A DNA stretch of 64,000 nucleotides from Gammaproteobacteria bacterium. Lineage in GTDB: Bacteria > Pseudomonadota > Gammaproteobacteria > CAJXQU01. This document shows, piece after piece, positions 915 through 45,261 of this stretch. Both the position numbers and the translations under genes were made by a program. The DNA lies in NCBI GenBank assembly GCA_965238175.1, contig CBDEGZ010000003.1:1856001-1920000 (forward strand). The letters are read 5' to 3'. The first letter of the stretch is position 1. Every line of letters starts with the position of its first letter. Under the pieces are notes generated by a model. It made no database searches, was not told the origin of the DNA, and saw only the letters and a list, made by a program, of their open reading frames with translations.

Positions 915-3158
915 CTATCTATTTATTTTTAATTTTTTTATACTTTTTTTCATTGTCCGTTTGCTTTTTTGTTTCCATTCATAAAAACGAACTGCCCAAC
1001 GCCAGTATACTAATTCTTTTCCTTGGATCTGATGATAATAATTCATAAACTCTTCACGACCAGGCCAGGTAAGTTTGTAATTAATTCGCATTAGATCAAT
1101 GAGACGTTGACGTTTGGTTAAGGTCGTTAAAATTCGTGCACGACCAATATCGATTATATATACTTCAACTTTGTTAGGTTTTTTCTGTTCATCATCCTTG
1201 TAAGTAAGTAATATATTTCCAGAAGATAAATCACGATGTAGTATTCCCACGCCATGCATTTTGCAAATGAAAGTAGCTATCTCTTTCAGGAGTAATGAGT
1301 TCTTGACCCCTCTATATTCTTCTTCACCGTTATTGATACTGTTAAACACATCTCTCGAAGAAAATGCATTCTCCAGAAATTCCGTTACATAATAGCTATT
1401 TCTAGTCCCGCTTTTTTCTTTACGTTCAAAAAAAGCGATTGGTTGAGGAGTATTGATCCCCCTAAGTAACATATGCGTGCCATTATTCCAATGACGTTTT
1501 GCCTTACTACTTTGGAAATGATAGCTAAAGCGCTTAAAGCCAGTCGTTCTATTTAATTTAACTGTTAAGGTGCCTAGCGTACTGGGTATATTCCATATCC
1601 GGTTACGACTGTCGCGTAAAACTTCAAGTTCTTTTGCTTGATCTAATGCTTCTGGAATAAACTCTGTACAAGCTTGATCAAAAGAATGCTTAGTATCGAT
1701 CATTAATGCACCTTGCCAATCATTATTTTCAAAATGATGAAAAGTTTTTTCTGTTGCTACTCCTGCGGCAATATTTTCAATCATTAAGTTGGGTAATATT
1801 TTTAATTGTTGAAGGCTAGGGCGTATAGTTGGTTTTGACGAAAAATAAATAAATAAAGGTGTCTCCGTAAAATTAGGAGGCGCGGTATCTAATGGTGTAG
1901 TACCGAGGTATGAATATTTAACATCTTTCAACTCGCCAGAATATAGTTTGGTAAAAGGTATTGCATAATTATCACGACACCAACACACATGGATTTCATG
2001 TTTATCTTCTGTAATAAAAATAAAATGACTAATTCCATTTTCGCCACTGAATCCCTGAATCAGTGTTGCATTACTTAAATTTGAAATAATATATTGATAG
2101 GCAAAAAAGGCGGGTCTACGGCGAAAATTATCAACACTACCTCTAAGCTCTTTATAGTAAGCAACATTATCAATTTGAGGATAAGTATTGTTGTCAGAAC
2201 CACAATCGATAAGACCATCGCGACCACAAATTAGTGGACCCCAGTAAGTACGATCAAGTGAGCCACTAGCAATTGCCAGGATCAAATATCGGCTCAAGTA
2301 TTCTGCTTGTTTTTGTTCGGGAAATTTATTGCGTCTGCTTAACCTTCTTACCGTCCAGCCGGTATAGGTACAGAATGTTTTTTTACTGCCCAGTTTTTTA
2401 CCAATGTGATCAATTATCCGAGCTTTTTTAATCAGGTTTAATTTCAAAAAATGACTGGCCCACTTTCCTAAAACACGGTGATCATAAGCTTCTGGTTCTA
2501 TAACTCTCTCAACAAATAAATTGTCTGTATGTATCACGGGTGCGCTATGTAATTCACGCATTGTATCGAGGTATGCGATATTAAACAGAGGTTCAAAATC
2601 TGAGATGTTGGGACCTGCAATGGTAATTTTATATTGTTCAGCGATAGGTCGAGCAATATTCCATGCATGCAGGTATGTGATAAAATTAAAGCCAGACCAT
2701 TTCTTTCGATTACTGGTATTACCAATTTCAAAAATATCAATTTTGTCGTGATAATTTTCAAATATTTTTCCCACAAAATCTTGCCAGTGTTTTTGTTTTT
2801 CGACAGAGTTGTCGAGGTTGGCTGCTTCATGAAGAGGCGGTAAAATATTCAACATCACATGATAGTCTTCTGCAATAATACGATCTAACAATCGCTGTGC
2901 ATGAGAACCGAATGAATCATAACTGAAAGCAAGTCGGACGTGTTTGAGGTTAAGATCATTTAATGCCTGTATGACATAATCGTCACTAGCAGGGTCTATG
3001 GAAGATGCAATATTGATCGCAAAAAAATCTTTTTTAATTTTAAACGTAGACAATACTTCGGGTGATATCCCGAGCCATAAACGAGAACGTATAAGCTCGG
3101 TTGAAATCGCAACTATTGCCCGTAGCCAGCTTTGTGGCGCTGGGATCTTTTCTTTCAT
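915..3158 (-). CDS. Fusion of a glycoside-hydrolase-like (clan A TIM barrel) domain and a C-terminal LPS kinase (WaaP/Kdo/InaA family) domain
   Basis: 747-aa ORF. The C-terminal part has kinase motifs HRDLSSGNILL and IIDIGR. The N-terminal part has a GH39/GH5-like pattern (HVRL..., FEIGNTSN, IAGPN). Confidence 0.7.
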   Translation of the reverse strand: MKEKIPAPQSWLRAIVAISTELIRSRLWLGISPEVLSTFKIKKDFFAINIASSIDPASDDYVIQALNDLNLKHVRLAFSYDSFGSHAQRLLDRIIAEDYHVMLNILPPLHEAANLDNSVEKQKHWQDFVGKIFENYHDKIDIFEIGNTSNRKKWSGFNFITYLHAWNIARPIAEQYKITIAGPNISDFEPLFNIAYLDTMRELHSAPVIHTDNLFVERVIEPEAYDHRVLGKWASHFLKLNLIKKARIIDHIGKKLGSKKTFCTYTGWTVRRLSRRNKFPEQKQAEYLSRYLILAIASGSLDRTYWGPLICGRDGLIDCGSDNNTYPQIDNVAYYKELRGSVDNFRRRPAFFAYQYIISNLSNATLIQGFSGENGISHFIFITEDKHEIHVCWCRDNYAIPFTKLYSGELKDVKYSYLGTTPLDTAPPNFTETPLFIYFSSKPTIRPSLQQLKILPNLMIENIAAGVATEKTFHHFENNDWQGALMIDTKHSFDQACTEFIPEALDQAKELEVLRDSRNRIWNIPSTLGTLTVKLNRTTGFKRFSYHFQSSKAKRHWNNGTHMLLRGINTPQPIAFFERKEKSGTRNSYYVTEFLENAFSSRDVFNSINNGEEEYRGVKNSLLLKEIATFICKMHGVGILHRDLSSGNILLTYKDDEQKKPNKVEVYIIDIGRARILTTLTKRQRLIDLMRINYKLTWPGREEFMNYYHQIQGKELVYWRWAVRFYEWKQKSKRTMKKSIKKLKINR

Positions 3159-3165
3159 AGTATTA

Positions 3166-4482
3166 TTAATGATGTCTTTTCAGTTCAGCTTGCCACTCAC
3201 GACTTTTTTGTAAAATTTCTTGTTCGTCGAGTGTTTGCAAACTTCCATGTTGAAGTAGCTGTCGTCCCGCGACCCAAACGTCGGTAATTTGATCACGGTT
3301 AGCAGAATAGATCAATTGTGAAATCGGATCATATAAGGGTTGGGTCTCAATTGTATTCATATTCAGGGCCATGATGTCGGCTTGTTTTCCGACAGACAAT
3401 GAACCAATTTTATCATCCAGTCCTAATGCTTTTGCACCGTTTAATGTCGCCATTTTTAAGGCAGTAAAAGCCGGTATTGCTTCAGCATTTTGAGAGACAC
3501 CTTTAGCGAGTAATGCCGCGCTACGCATTTCGCCGAGCATATCAAGATCGTTATTGCTAGCAGCGCCATCTGTGCCCAGTGCGATGTTTATGTTGTTTTG
3601 TTCAAGATCAGAAACAGGACAGAAACCGCTGGCAAGTTTGAGATTGGATTCTGGACAATGAACAATATTTACGCCATGTTTTTTGATCAATTCTTTGTCA
3701 GAGTCACTAAGTTGTGTCATATGAACGGCGATTAAGCGCGGCGATAATAAACCAAGTCTTTCTAATCTTTGGATTGGACGTTCACCAGTTTGTTTTATCG
3801 ATTCTTCAACTTCATGCGCAATTTCATGTAAATGGATGGTGATCTGCACATCCAGTTCTTCCGCATGAACGGTGATTTTTTTTAATGAGGCATCACTGAC
3901 TGTGTAAGGCGCATGTGGTGCAAAGCAAGTACTGATCAAAGGATCGTTACGATATTGATCATGAACTTCAAGGCTTTTATGAAAATACTCTTCTGCGTCG
4001 TTTGCCCAGGTTGAAGGGAAATCGATCACGATCATTCCAACCATCGCTCTGATCCCGGCGACGGATGCGATATGCGCAACTTGATCAGGGAAAAAGTACA
4101 TATCATTAAAACAGGTAGTACCACTACGGATCATTTCCGCGATGGCATGTCGTGTGCCATCAAGCACGAATTCTGCACTGACAGCATCATGTTCAGCGGG
4201 CCAGATATGATCATTTAACCAGGTCATTAGTGGTTTATCATCAGACAGACCACGGAACAGATTCATCGCGGCATGTGTATGTGCGTTGATCAAACCCGGC
4301 GTTAAAAGGTGATTATCTAATTTATGAATCGTTTCAGCCTGATATTTTTCGTTAGCGACAACTGAAGGTAGTAATTCGAGAATTTCACTTTCATGGATCG
4401 CAATCGCATGTTTTTCAAGGACTACATTTTCTGGTTCAACAGGAACGATCCAGCCTGCGTGAATAAGCGTATCAATGTTCAT
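3166..4482 (-). CDS. mtaD: 5-methylthioadenosine/S-adenosylhomocysteine deaminase (TRZ/ATZ amidohydrolase)
   Basis: Motifs PGLINAHTH, HLHE, HCPESNLKL and LGTDG; lies near mtnA in divergent orientation. Confidence 0.85.
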   Translation of the reverse strand: MNIDTLIHAGWIVPVEPENVVLEKHAIAIHESEILELLPSVVANEKYQAETIHKLDNHLLTPGLINAHTHAAMNLFRGLSDDKPLMTWLNDHIWPAEHDAVSAEFVLDGTRHAIAEMIRSGTTCFNDMYFFPDQVAHIASVAGIRAMVGMIVIDFPSTWANDAEEYFHKSLEVHDQYRNDPLISTCFAPHAPYTVSDASLKKITVHAEELDVQITIHLHEIAHEVEESIKQTGERPIQRLERLGLLSPRLIAVHMTQLSDSDKELIKKHGVNIVHCPESNLKLASGFCPVSDLEQNNINIALGTDGAASNNDLDMLGEMRSAALLAKGVSQNAEAIPAFTALKMATLNGAKALGLDDKIGSLSVGKQADIMALNMNTIETQPLYDPISQLIYSANRDQITDVWVAGRQLLQHGSLQTLDEQEILQKSREWQAELKRHH

Positions 4483-4566
4483 AAATTATTGTTCTTCGAT
4501 TAAATCAAAGCGTGAAAATCAAAAGCTGTTAAATACTTTAAAGGAGAATTCATAAGCTAAATCGTG

Positions 4567-5445
4567 CTAATTATGCATGTAATCATGAAAGAAAGTAAGA
4601 ACCTGATCACGATACTTTTCAGGGGCATATTCGTAAATATTTTGATGGGCTGCGCCTTTAACTCTCCATATTTTTTTCGGCTCAGATGCTTGTTCGAACA
4701 TTCTATTACTTTGATCAATTGATGTATGTTTATCTTTGGTTCCAGCAATAATAAAAACGGGTGAAGTTGTTTGTTTTAATTCGTCTATCGGGCTTAGTTC
4801 TTCTGGTGAGAAGCCAAGGCGTGGTTTTATTTGCCATAGGAGCAGAGGTGATAAATGTTTTCCAAGAATTTTTAAATGTATCTCAATTCTATTTTTAACA
4901 GCCTCCTTAAGTGTTGGGTAGACCATTTCTAATACAATGGCATTGGCCTGATTTTTTATTGAACTTAATAAGGCTGATGCACCCCCAAGAGATACACCAA
5001 TGATACCAACAGGTTTTCCATTAATTTTGTTTTTTAATAATTTAAATGCTGCATTTGTATCCTGAGATTCCAGATAACCGAATGTAATATGTTTGCCAGA
5101 ACTTTTCCCATGCGCTTGAAAATCAAATAAGAGTACAGAATAACCTGCCGTATTTAACATTGTTGCCCGATCAACCATTTCTCTTCGATCAGATCGAACA
5201 CTATGCATGAGCAAGATGCCGCCTTTTTCTTTTTGACCTTTGATAAAAGTACCAGATAACAACTTTCCCGTTGTACTTGAAAAAATGATATCTTCTACGT
5301 TCGTGATACCAAAATCATCAGGTTTGAGATCGAAATTGCTTTGATGTGGATTAGTTAAAATGGTACCTAATATATACAAGCAAGAAAGGCCAATAATTCC
5401 TATACAAAGAATGATTAATAATAAAGTTTTCGGTTTTTTTAGCAT
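4567..5445 (-). CDS. Alpha/beta hydrolase with N-terminal membrane anchor
   Basis: GVSLGG nucleophile elbow, Asp (GTKD) and His (GAAH). Start moved to ATG 5445 because the track start overlaps mtnA. Confidence 0.8.
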   Translation of the reverse strand: MLKKPKTLLLIILCIGIIGLSCLYILGTILTNPHQSNFDLKPDDFGITNVEDIIFSSTTGKLLSGTFIKGQKEKGGILLMHSVRSDRREMVDRATMLNTAGYSVLLFDFQAHGKSSGKHITFGYLESQDTNAAFKLLKNKINGKPVGIIGVSLGGASALLSSIKNQANAIVLEMVYPTLKEAVKNRIEIHLKILGKHLSPLLLWQIKPRLGFSPEELSPIDELKQTTSPVFIIAGTKDKHTSIDQSNRMFEQASEPKKIWRVKGAAHQNIYEYAPEKYRDQVLTFFHDYMHN

Positions 5446-43732: not shown

Positions 43733-43768
43733 TTGCGTGGCATTTTTAAAACTGTATAATTGCCTCGC
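43733..43768 (+). promoter_or_regulatory. Sigma-70 stable-RNA promoter of tRNA-Ser
   Basis: TTGCGT-16 nt-TATAAT followed by a GC-rich discriminator TGCCTCGC, immediately before the tRNA. Confidence 0.7.
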
Positions 43769-43770
43769 TT

Positions 43771-44088
43771 GGAGAGATGGCAGAGCGGTTGAATGCACTG
43801 GTCTTGTTCTAAATATATAATCGAGCCTTTATGTGGAAATGCATAAAGTGTAAGCAGTCAAATTCAGGGAAGCCTTAACAGTTAAGTTGATGGTAATCCT
43901 GAGCCAAGCTAACAAAAGTTAGAAGGTGCAGAGACTTGACGGCTGCTACCTAAATCGCATACGCGACATGGTAAAGAGAAAGTCCAGACCACAAACATAT
44001 TATGTATGGCAGCGAAAGCTGTAGATGGTAAGGAAAACCAGCAAGGGTGAATAGCCCTTCCAGGGTTCGAATCCCTGTCTCTCCGCCA
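43771..44088 (+). tRNA. serT: tRNA-Ser(UGA), intron-containing (exons 43771-43805 and 44033-44088)
   Basis: Joined exons give a 91-nt class II tRNA: acceptor GGAGAGA/TCTCTCC, G discriminator plus CCA, anticodon arm CTGGT-CT-TGA-AA-ACCAG, variable arm AAGGG/CCCTT and T arm CAGGG-TTCGAAT-CCCTG. Confidence 0.92.
43806..44032 (+). ncRNA. Group I self-splicing intron (IC3-like), 227 nt, no ORF
   Basis: 5' exon ends in U and intron ends in G. P AAATTCAGGGAA (43860-71), Q AATCCTGAGC (43895-904), R GTGCAGAGACTTGACGG (43926-42), S AAGAGAAAGTCC (43974-85). P3 AGCAGTC/GGCTGCT; P9 GCAGC-GAAA-GCTGT. Confidence 0.9.
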
Positions 44089-44096
44089 ATATTATC

Positions 44097-44118
44097 AGGC
44101 CCCGATTCGGGGCTTTTT
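44097..44118 (+). terminator. Rho-independent terminator of the tRNA gene
   Basis: AGGCCCCG-ATT-CGGGGCTTTTT. Confidence 0.85.
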
Positions 44119-44175
44119 GGTTTTTGGGCATATAAATTGCCTTTAATTCTGAATGGTTAGGAATAATTGTTAATT

Positions 44176-45261
44176 ATGAAAAGTAAGGTTTTAATTCTAC
44201 CAGGTGATGGAATTGGTCCTGAAATTGTCGACGAGGCTGTTAAAGTTCTCAACGTTTTATCTTCAGATTTTGGACTTGAAGTTGATCTTGAGTATGGGTT
44301 GATTGGTGGAGCAGCAATTGATGAGACTGGAAACCCTTTACCAGAAAGTTCTTTGCAACAAGCTCAAGCAGCAGATGCTGTTCTATTAGGTGCAGTAGGT
44401 GGGCCGAAGTGGGAAGCTCTGGATATTGCAATTAGACCTGAAAAAGGGTTGTTGAAAATTCGATCAGAACTGGAATTGTTTGCAAACTTACGACCAGCTT
44501 TAACCGCACCACAATTGGTCGAAGCATCTGCATTGCGATCAGAAGTGGTTTCCGGTTTAGATATTATGATTGTCAGAGAGTTAACGGGTGGTATATATTT
44601 TGGTCATCCACGCGGAGTCCGCGAGTTGAAAAATGGTGAAAAACAAGGGTTTAATACACTTATTTATAGTGAATCCGAGATTGAAAGAATAGGTCGTGTG
44701 GCATTTGAGGCTGCAATGAAAAGGGATCGTCGAGTCTGTTCTATTGATAAGGCTAATGTATTAGAGTCTACAGAACTATGGCGTGAGGTCATGATCGGAC
44801 TGGCTAAAGAGTATCCAGAGGTTGAGTTGACTCATATGTATGTCGATAATGCGGCAATGCAGTTAGTACGCGCTCCAAAACAATTCGATGTTATGGTGAC
44901 TACAAATATGTTTGGTGACATACTGTCTGATCTGGCATCTATGTTGACAGGCTCGATTGGAATGTTGCCTTCAGCTTCATTAGATAAAAATGCTAAGGGA
45001 ATGTATGAGCCCATTCATGGTTCTGCGCCTGATATTGCCGGACAGAATATTGCTAATCCATTGGCAACCATATTATCCGTTTCTATGATGCTTAGATATT
45101 CACTTGCTGAAGCGGAACAAGCTGACAGGGTAGAAAAAGCAGTAGACAACGTATTGACGGCTAACTATCGAACACCGGACATCTTTTCTGAAGGTATGAA
45201 GAAAGTTGGAACGGCAGAAATGGGAGATGCGGTTGTTACCGTGTTAAAAAGGTTAAGTTAA
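44176..45261 (+). CDS. leuB: 3-isopropylmalate dehydrogenase
   Basis: [29 protein letters not shown] and [13 protein letters not shown]. Confidence 0.96.

Follow-up and report, generated by a model that had tools for sequence, protein, structure and literature searches.

A probably functional group I intron within the anticodon of a gammaproteobacterial tRNA-Ser(UGA) gene, and related introns in phage tRNA genes

How does a bacterium read the serine codons UCA and UCG when a default search of its genome reveals no transfer RNA (tRNA) for them? The question is raised by a stretch of 64,000 nucleotides of a gammaproteobacterium (assembly GCA_965238175.1, contig CBDEGZ010000003.1, positions 1,856,001 to 1,920,000 of the forward strand), which we call the window and in which positions are counted from its first letter. 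Default ARAGORN calls no tRNA in the whole 64-kb window, an invisibility to standard annotation that a preliminary description of the locus, made from the letters alone, had anticipated. The missing gene lies at 43771-44088 of the + strand, split in its anticodon by an intron that carries no open reading frame (ORF), and we propose that this element is very probably a functional group I intron on which the decoding of UCA and UCG depends.

The 5′ exon of the gene (43771-43805, 35 nt, + strand) comprises the acceptor and D arms, the 5′ half of the anticodon stem and C32, U33 and U34. The 3′ exon (44033-44088, 56 nt) provides G35 and A36, the 3′ half of the anticodon stem, a long variable arm, the T arm, the acceptor strand, G73 and an encoded CCA. 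Between them, and thus between U34 and G35, lies the IC3-type intron (43806-44032, 227 nt), which is preceded by U43805, begins with G and ends with the terminal G (omega-G) at 44032, a border read from the sequence and also placed there by ARAGORN. When the exons are joined, this program recognises a 91-nt class II tRNA-Ser(tga) with a long extra arm and the 3′ end GCCA; the spliced product consequently has the long variable arm, serine anticodon, G73 and CCA that define a class II tRNA-Ser. In intron mode, the unaltered DNA is read as tRNA-Ser(tga) i(36,227), so that the borders and the perfect 91-nt tRNA of the preliminary description proved exact.

The identity of the intervening DNA was assessed with Rfam. 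The group I family RF00028 matches 43796-44007 over the full model (1-253) with 64.5 bits, compared to a gathering score of 50 (E 4.6e-14), and it is the sole Rfam family above threshold in the window; in the complete 3.35-Mb genome, the window intron is its one match. Together with the fold and the covariation described below, this score bears out the earlier assignment to the tRNA introns of IC3 type at site 34/35. No ORF of 40 or more amino acids (aa) occurs on the + strand inside 43806-44032, as had also been claimed, and the window intron consequently offers no candidate homing endonuclease. Additionally, a tblastn search of the genome with the HNH endonuclease-like ORF of a phage intron (see below) gave nothing better than E 6.8, that is, no endonuclease remnant. 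We consider the window element a real group I intron, which is probably active.

Is the product of this gene needed? In the whole genome, ARAGORN finds 38 tRNAs and one transfer-messenger RNA. The serine tRNAs among them have the anticodons GGA and GCU only, and no UGA or CGA anticodon was found elsewhere in this tRNA set, which derives from an assembly that is 97.7% complete in three contigs; the suggestion that the split gene might be the sole copy has thus gained ground, as no second, intron-less tRNA-Ser(UGA) turned up. Because GGA and GCU tRNAs are unable to read UCA or UCG by the standard decoding rules, the cell needs the spliced product. In 1291 ORFs of at least 300 codons, UCA leads the serine codons (16.1 per 1000 codons, 24.2% of those for serine) and UCG amounts to 7.0 per 1000, and about 23 of every 1000 codons would therefore become readable only after the action of a ribozyme. 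From the need to read these two codons we infer that the intron is active in vivo. The genome's own tRNA-Leu(UAA), which belongs to a classical host type of such introns, has none.

The intron can be folded into the architecture of its family. We wrote out 59 base pairs, all of them (59/59) standard pairs in the window sequence, which build the paired regions P1, P2, P3, P4, P5, P6, P6a, P7, P8 with an inner stem, P9.0, P9a and P9. In P1 (43803-43825), the exon CUU and the first G of the intron face the internal guide through C43803-G43825, U43804-A43824, U43805-G43823 and G43806-C43822, the third of these pairs being the U-G wobble that characterises group I 5′ splice sites; the P1 loop (43807-43821) is AU-rich. 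P2 (43827-43848) has 9 bp and a GAAA tetraloop at 43836-43839, and P3 joins 43853-43859 to 43941-43947. The P4-P6 domain consists of P4 (43864-43869 with 43897-43902, third pair A43866-U43900), which encloses P5 (43873-43874 with 43892-43893, and an extension), of P6 (43904-43905 with 43925-43926) and of the P6a hairpin (43909-43913 with 43918-43922), closed by an AAAA loop. The segment formed by the joining region J6/7 and the 5′ strand of P7 (43927-43937) includes C43929 in J6/7, a bulged A43932 and G43933, and the 3′ strand of P7 (43980-43985) lies within the S element; P7 forms a pseudoknot with P3. By analogy with solved group I introns, G43933-C43984, beside the bulged A43932, is presumably the guanosine-binding pair. 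The conserved core of group I introns (P3-P8, the P3/P7 pseudoknot, the P4-P6 domain, and the bulge and G-C pair of P7) is thus present.

The periphery agrees with this picture. P8 pairs 43948-43950 with 43970-43972 and has an inner stem (43956-43958 with 43963-43965); its internal loop, CCUAAA / CAUGG, is, going by the IC3 architecture, a candidate receptor for the P2 tetraloop. P9.0 (43988-43990 with 44027-44029) encloses both the modelled P9a hairpin (43995-43998 with 44002-44005) and P9 (44009-44013 with 44018-44022), which again has a GAAA tetraloop (44014-44017). The IC3 traits seen are therefore the length of 227 nt, the GAAA loops on P2 and P9, P9.0 and the anticodon-loop site, together with a candidate receptor in P8. 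A free minimum free energy (MFE) fold reaches −58.1 kcal/mol (z −2.55) and yields P2, P3, P4, P6a, the inner stem of P8 and P9. The P, Q, R and S strings and the helices P1, P2, P3, P4, P6a and P9 of the preliminary description are all there as described, and its P8 (TACC/GGTA) stands as a helix, except that its first U (43947) is better placed in P3. The Rfam alignment draws P1 in a register that is one base off, with the wobble at U43804, which we rejected because it cannot give the tRNA product.

If the fold matters, it should have been preserved among related introns. We aligned the window intron by MAFFT with 58 distinct relatives of 195-262 nt, chosen by length and uniqueness from 108 entries and taken with 8 nt of exon on each side; the structure that was tested was derived from the first row of this alignment. 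Standard pairs occupy 84.2% of 3422 cells (59 introns by 59 pairs), as opposed to 72.3% in shuffled controls, none of which (0/500) reached the observed value, and 30-47% in controls with slid partners. Changes on both sides of a pair, i.e., compensatory ones, are seen in 40 of the 59 pairs. Pairing is found in 94.9% of cells in P1 (helix 1 of the model), 86% in P3 (with changes on both sides in 7/7 pairs), 98.9% in P4, 98.3% in P5, 99.1% in P6 (C-G/U-A covariation, 33/18), 88.5% in P6a and 99.4% in P7 (helix 8). P8 is paired in 100% of cells in helix 9 and 72% in helix 10, and compensatory changes are spread over P3-P8. Although all nine pairs of P2 show compensatory changes, only 55.9% of its cells are paired, and P9a drops to 33.8%, low scores that arise because MAFFT cannot align variable hairpins. 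The search patterns with which the relatives were collected contained GTCCAGACC.CAAA and GCAG.GAAA..TGTAG..GGTAAG. How well P9.0, P9 and part of P7 are conserved can, consequently, not count as independent evidence, and GGTAAG, although present at the 3′ end of every collected intron, was itself part of these patterns.

A more specific comparison is offered by P10, the helix between the guide and the 3′ exon, in which U43821 and C43822 pair with G44033 and A44034. Among the 37 aligned introns that have a CUU 5′ exon, the guide strand of P1 is GAG in every case (37/37), and the base 5′ of GAG varies with the first base of the 3′ exon. It is C where the exon starts with G (4/4 Ser hosts and the 1/1 Thr host), U where it starts with A (29/29 Leu hosts) and G where it starts with C (3/3 Arg hosts). 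The first P10 pair can form in 37/37 and the second in 35/37 of these introns. The 3′ splice site is thus marked by the terminal G44032 and by a P10 that covaries with the host tRNA. This pattern of bases establishes P10 as a real feature of the subfamily, with a window intron adapted to G35 of tRNA-Ser(UGA). As its guide base fits the serine 3′ exon, the window intron is therefore no stray intron of a leucine tRNA, and a change of one guide base is suggested to be enough to refit the same ribozyme to another tRNA.

By its membership in the family, the intron would be expected to splice by the usual chemistry of group I introns. The precursor would fold so that the exon CUU and G1 of the intron pair with the guide CGAG as P1, and an external guanosine, held at the P7 site, would attack after U43805. 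The UC of the guide would then pair with the first two bases of the 3′ exon, GA, as P10, and the freed exon would attack after the terminal G44032, ligation leaving a standard 91-nt tRNA-Ser.

The host gene itself is uninterrupted elsewhere in the genus. In 6/6 congeners, exons 1 and 2 are contiguous (100% and 98% identity), no intron-like DNA was found in their six genomes and each has a single such tRNA-Ser locus. The 5′ exon is 100% identical to those of all six, and the spliced product differs from the congener gene at one of 91 nt, in the variable arm (position 52 in three congeners and position 57 in the other three). The simplest reading of these comparisons would be one intron gain in this species.

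Could the locus, nevertheless, be something other than a working self-splicing intron? Two circumstances weigh against our reading: no RNA run matching the locus was present among the sequencing runs searched, splicing being a prediction, and an assembly that is 97.7% complete does not absolutely exclude a second tRNA-Ser(UGA). Both would suit a decayed, non-splicing insertion in a dead tRNA gene, with UCA and UCG read otherwise or by an unassembled copy, and so would the 7-nt AU-rich insert of the P1 loop relative to Leu introns. We regard such decay as very improbable, since none of the 59 core pairs is broken, the unique changes of the intron compensate one another (G-C to A-U in P4), the exons are unchanged relative to those of the congeners, which have one such locus each, and a tRNA set with no other UGA or CGA anticodon has to serve UCA as its commonest serine codon. 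An intron that splices only with the help of a protein, be it a chaperone or a maturase-like factor, is easier to imagine, yet still improbable. Just three pairs of P1 involve the exon and its AU-rich loop is large, the A+T-richness of the genome and the intron (40% G+C) can lower folding stability and the z score of the MFE fold is modest; on the other hand, both GAAA tetraloops and the candidate receptor are present, the intron encodes no protein of its own and small tRNA introns of this type, such as those of Azoarcus and Anabaena, are textbook self-splicers, which we count against a dependence on proteins. The gene might, finally, be an artefact in which a phage or otherwise foreign intron was wrongly joined into a chromosomal tRNA gene. 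The only sequencing run that holds the stretch (X1) is probably the assembly's own source and thus gives no independent confirmation, whereas coverage by run X2 is confined to 28 nt in the T arm and run X3 covers nothing of the locus. A 61,784-nt contig of X1 spans the whole stretch with 0 differences, though, and the insertion is base-exact at the canonical group I site, has a guide that suits this very tRNA and a G+C content (0.40) equal to that of the chromosome (0.404), all of which makes a faulty join extremely improbable.

With a functional intron as by far the best account of the locus, the question becomes where it came from. Its nearest relatives in bacteria come from three further families of its class, where intron-like DNA 74-77% identical to it occupies site 34/35 of tRNA-Leu(UAA) genes, within clusters of Gly, Cys and Leu tRNAs. 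An exact-motif scan, with one genome per species, found at least 119 loci, to which hosts were assigned by ARAGORN and by the starts of the 3′ exons. Leu is the commonest host among the 119 matches listed: at least 56 of them are Leu(taa) by ARAGORN, and at least 17 uncalled loci have the same 3′ exon start, AAAA, as Leu hosts. Among the same matches, ARAGORN calls Met(cat) at at least 16 loci, Arg(tct) at at least six, “Leu(caa)” at at least five, and Thr(tgt) and “Ser(cga)” at at least one each, and the uncalled 3′ exons start with CTAA (at least eight loci), CATA (at least seven) or TAAA (at least two). Four of the five “Leu(caa)” labels and the “Ser(cga)” label were set aside as mis-called CAU tRNAs, their 3′ exons starting with CATAACC; the fifth “Leu(caa)” locus (L033) has the 3′ exon CAAAATC. 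Neither a Ser host nor a 3′ exon start GAAA occurs among the 119 matches listed.

Two further scans, both of which were samples searched with exact motifs, give the same impression, and Ser hosts are accordingly to be read as not found in the genomes that were searched. In 401 genomes of the class, the motif occurs in 23, at 25 places (loci L157-L181), whose hosts are Arg(UCU) in 13 cases, Leu(UAA) in 10, a CAU tRNA in one and Ser(UGA) in one, the latter being the window. Hence, 22 of 400 other class genomes carry introns of this family, which occur fairly often in the class to which the window belongs; the relatives named here are, as sequences, consistent with a gammaproteobacterial host. 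A motif specific for Ser matched only the window genome in a sample of 401 genomes of the phylum.

Some of the loci collected in this way deserve separate mention. In a 727-bp Pseudidiomarina contig with Ns from a metagenome-assembled genome (L060, positions 230-450), a tRNA-Thr(tgt) contains a 205-nt intron at 34/35, whose guide AC|GAG matches its 3′ exon GU and whose Rfam score, 44.8 bits, is below threshold. In a 2966-bp metagenome contig (L143, 183-472), a 215-nt intron with the guide TC|GGT and no Rfam match at E 0.001 or better interrupts a 75-nt tRNA between U33 and G34; this tRNA is most likely Phe(GAA), mis-called Leu(caa) by ARAGORN. At several viral or metagenome loci (L142/L146, L144, L145/L148, L147, L150 and L151), the exon that comes after this intron 3′ end is not that of a tRNA and starts with GAAATTGATAC. 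There are no tRNA calls at any of them, and they are probably cases in which this intron family interrupts a protein-coding gene of a phage.

Ser-specific motifs did find hosts of the same kind outside cellular genomes. Six viral contigs contain a tRNA-Ser(tga) split at the same site, by four distinct introns. The intron of L149, a 206,856-bp contig that recurs as the metagenome locus L141, has 667 nt; L152, L153 and L155 have one common intron of 206 nt; that of L154, a 305,890-bp contig, has 218 nt; and that of L156 (9,190 bases of an 18,502-bp viral contig) has 216 nt and lies in a dense tRNA array. The preliminary description had supposed that the pairing of a group I intron with tRNA-Ser(UGA) might be new, but the pairing is not unique among known sequences, as these six contigs, where it is unannotated, have it too. 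The L149 intron holds, in its P1 loop, an ORF of 132-143 aa that matches seven HNH-endonuclease families of PHROG (best E 2.1e-17). Of the ORFs nearby, those in L149 show matches to a DNA ligase family of phages and to a further HNH family, and one beside the intron of L154 matches a phage-only family (E 6e-242), which supports a viral origin of both contigs. Group I introns, some of them with endonucleases, do occur in phage tRNA genes, which bears on the evolution of tRNA arrays and on exchange with the host.

Other observations were made in these and related viral sequences. In L149, the neighbours include a free-standing HNH ORF (2340-3464; phrog_559, E 3e-115) beside a tRNA-Phe and an ATP-dependent DNA ligase (3659-4807; phrog_114). 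L156 has, besides the split tRNA-Ser, 15 above-threshold matches to the tRNA family RF00005, and a sub-threshold match to manA RNA at 855-1139 (31.1 vs 55.2 bits). Among cultured jumbo phages, Klebsiella phage Muenster (MT708547; L183, about 1110-1500), phiKp_21 (L185) and Escherichia phage Turkey5 (L184, 1117-1422) have an unannotated, split CAU tRNA in the gap between an annotated tRNA-Ser and a tRNA-Asn. Its intron is group I-like and, read by eye, has an A-U pair in P4 with a C in J6/7, and an annotated HNH endonuclease gene adjoins the split tRNA. Additionally, in the unannotated record of an uncultured phage (LR756501, 735,411 bp; L182), a tRNA-Leu(taa) at 1097-1387 is interrupted at 34/35 by an intron of 205 nt.

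How close is the window intron to those of phages? We built two trees, which do not agree. In a quick tree of 104 distinct introns, for which P1 and 6 nt of each exon were kept, the CAU-tRNA introns form a clade and the five Ser introns, when constrained together, have a better likelihood than the free search (p of the approximately unbiased test, p-AU, 0.71). In a careful tree, from which P1 and the exons were removed, the sister of the window intron is the HNH-bearing phage intron of L149 (support 99/97). Independently of any tree, a count by alignment columns shows that 101 of the 104 rows combine G-C as the third pair of P4 with U in J6/7 and one combines it with G, while the two remaining rows, which have A-U in P4 and C in J6/7, are the window intron and the phage HNH intron. 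Base triples between P4 and J6/7 are known from group I structures, and this correlated change at three positions fits them. It argues for kinship of the window and L149 introns, and also for selection that has kept acting on the fold. The P1 loop of the window intron exceeds that of Leu introns by 7 nt (an AT repeat), and it sits where the L149 intron carries its HNH ORF; the excess may be the scar of ORF loss, or just slippage. With an HNH ORF in the P1 loop of the sister intron, the earlier suggestion of a since-lost endonuclease gains support.

On these grounds we propose that the window intron would derive from a lineage living in phage tRNA-Ser(UGA) genes, that either homing driven by the endonuclease or recombination would have brought it into the chromosome and that the endonuclease gene would later have been lost from the P1 loop. 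Provided that the intron is functional, we think the chances of such an origin to be even or slightly better. A stronger version, in which an IC3 lineage specialised on tRNA-Ser(UGA), mainly in phages, is mobilised by the P1-loop HNH endonuclease and the window holds a fixed case of homing from phage to host, can be put forward only tentatively. If it is true, the shared target in the anticodon region would let a phage endonuclease, during infection, cut the single, essential tRNA-Ser gene of its host and repair from the phage copy would plant the intron, which would now shield the gene from further cutting while tying the decoding of UCA and UCG to a ribozyme. A rather unlikely alternative, but the one with most in its favour, is a separate origin from a bacterial tRNA-Leu(UAA) intron that was reverse-spliced into a similar anticodon loop (CUU|AAA vs CUU|GAA) and became fixed through reverse transcription followed by recombination; in the guide, a U would have turned into C and so restored P10, and the phages would have acquired their introns separately. 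P1 needs only the CUU that is common to both tRNAs, the nearest bacterial relatives are the same-class Leu introns mentioned above and the best identity over 228 columns (71%) is to a Leu intron. Against this route speak the position beside a phage Ser intron once P1 and the exons are removed, the three-position character common only to the window and L149 introns, and a genome whose tRNA-Leu(UAA) is intronless and which has no second RF00028 match.

Several results, some of which also suit a leucine origin, weigh against the phage ancestry that we prefer. The quick tree, which contains P1, places the window intron beside gammaproteobacterial Leu introns (Shimodaira-Hasegawa-like approximate likelihood ratio test, SH-aLRT, 82). 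In the careful tree, the three remaining Ser introns of phages are dispersed over weakly supported positions and monophyly of the five Ser introns costs 31.5 log-likelihood units (p-AU 0.086), so that the Ser-hosted introns are not clearly one clade, this being neither shown nor rejected, and both trees are weakened by long branches and by the use of MAFFT for a structured RNA. The identity between the window and phage HNH introns is about 70% (about 79% over aligned positions), and the window intron is about equally far from several Leu and CAU introns; no close donor was found, the top identities, with gaps counted, staying at about 70-73% irrespective of the host tRNA. In the exons, which match those of congeners and not the phage tRNA, no tract of co-conversion can be seen. 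Moreover, the group I nature of the phage introns is less well marked by Rfam than that of the window intron: only the L152 intron (57.3 bits) exceeds the threshold among phage Ser introns, those of L149 (49.2 bits) and L154 (44.8 bits) score below it and the L156 intron has no match at E 0.001 or better. In Pfam, the L149 ORF gives a sub-threshold HNH_3 match (E 0.0079).

Compared to known systems, the window intron most resembles those of tRNA-Leu(UAA), which have the same core and lie at the same 34/35 site after a CUU exon. Unlike them, it has a Ser(UGA) host, a C instead of U beside the GAG of the guide, which fits G35, an A-U pair in P4 with C in J6/7 and the longer P1 loop. The Azoarcus tRNA-Ile(CAU) intron, the structural model of the IC3 group, is also small, with three exon pairs in P1, GAAA on P2 and P9, and a P9.0 by the terminal G, but it lies after the anticodon of a CAU tRNA. 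A cyanobacterial tRNA-fMet intron, reportedly described by Bonocora and Shub in 2001, is said to have an anticodon-specific homing endonuclease; it resembles the phage L149 intron in belonging to the same family and in an endonuclease aimed at the anticodon region, whereas the window intron lacks an ORF and the phage one is HNH-like and lies in the P1 loop. The Agrobacterium tRNA-Arg(CCU) intron, which Reinhold-Hurek and Shub are said to have reported in 1992, is likewise proteobacterial and in an anticodon loop, in a different tRNA; the Arg host in our class sample is UCU (13/25 places) rather than CCU. Phage introns of the T4 td and nrdB type share with L149 their phage location and an HNH-type ORF in a peripheral loop, but they lie in protein-coding genes and L149-type introns in tRNA genes.

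The reviews consulted name, as bacterial tRNA hosts, Leu(UAA), fMet, Ile(CAU) and Arg(CCU), and these only from cyanobacteria, alpha- and beta-proteobacteria (PMC4033280, PMC3984707). As of 2014, according to a review that points to the abundance of tRNA genes in phages, every known phage intron lay in a protein-coding gene (PMC3984707). Another paper explains “missing” tRNAs in the output of tRNAscan-SE by introns of fMet and Ile2 and indicates that tRNAscan-SE 2.0 was not designed to detect such introns (PMC8450103). Insertions of 22-49 nt that have been claimed as group I introns of tRNA-Arg, Gly and Lys in cyanobacteria (PMC5733544) were set aside as too short. In the full-text literature searched, which covers few subscription journals, we found no published group I intron in a tRNA-Ser or in a phage tRNA gene. 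The window intron is thus best placed among the well-known IC3 tRNA introns, with a host tRNA that we have not found in print, and tRNA-Ser(UGA) joins the short list of bacterial tRNAs that host group I introns. The dependence on a sole-copy tRNA is unusual and the phage connection unexpected. As default ARAGORN misses this tRNA and tRNAscan-SE 2.0 is not made for such introns, genomes that have them will look short of an essential tRNA. The locus, in turn, offers a clean natural system in which the efficiency and regulation of self-splicing may be studied in a bacterium.

The surroundings of the gene are those of an independent unit, at least in part. The terminator claimed in the preliminary description was called by a scan (44097-44115 and the following T run) and comprises 44097-44125, with an 8-bp stem, six G-C pairs and a T-rich tail. 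The claimed promoter is a candidate (43733-43760, + strand) with −35 TTGCGT at 43733-43738, a 16-nt spacer and −10 TATAAT at 43755-43760, which is a perfect match ending 10 nt before the 5′ end of the tRNA. As the −35 fits at 3/6 positions, the promoter scan made no call at 43733-43760, and the perfect −10 is what speaks for it. The region probably forms one transcription unit for the cell's sole tRNA-Ser(UGA). Downstream follows leuB (44167-45261), which is also found after the tRNA in two of the six congeners (protein identity 91.7% and 81.5%); within 1.5 kb of the tRNA, there is no leuB in the remaining four. Elsewhere in this genome, one small contig (C1, 10,967 bp) has a G+C content of 55.8%, as opposed to 40.4% in the chromosome, and bears the second of two tRNA-Leu(gag) genes; a plasmid, DNA of foreign origin and contamination during binning are all possible explanations.

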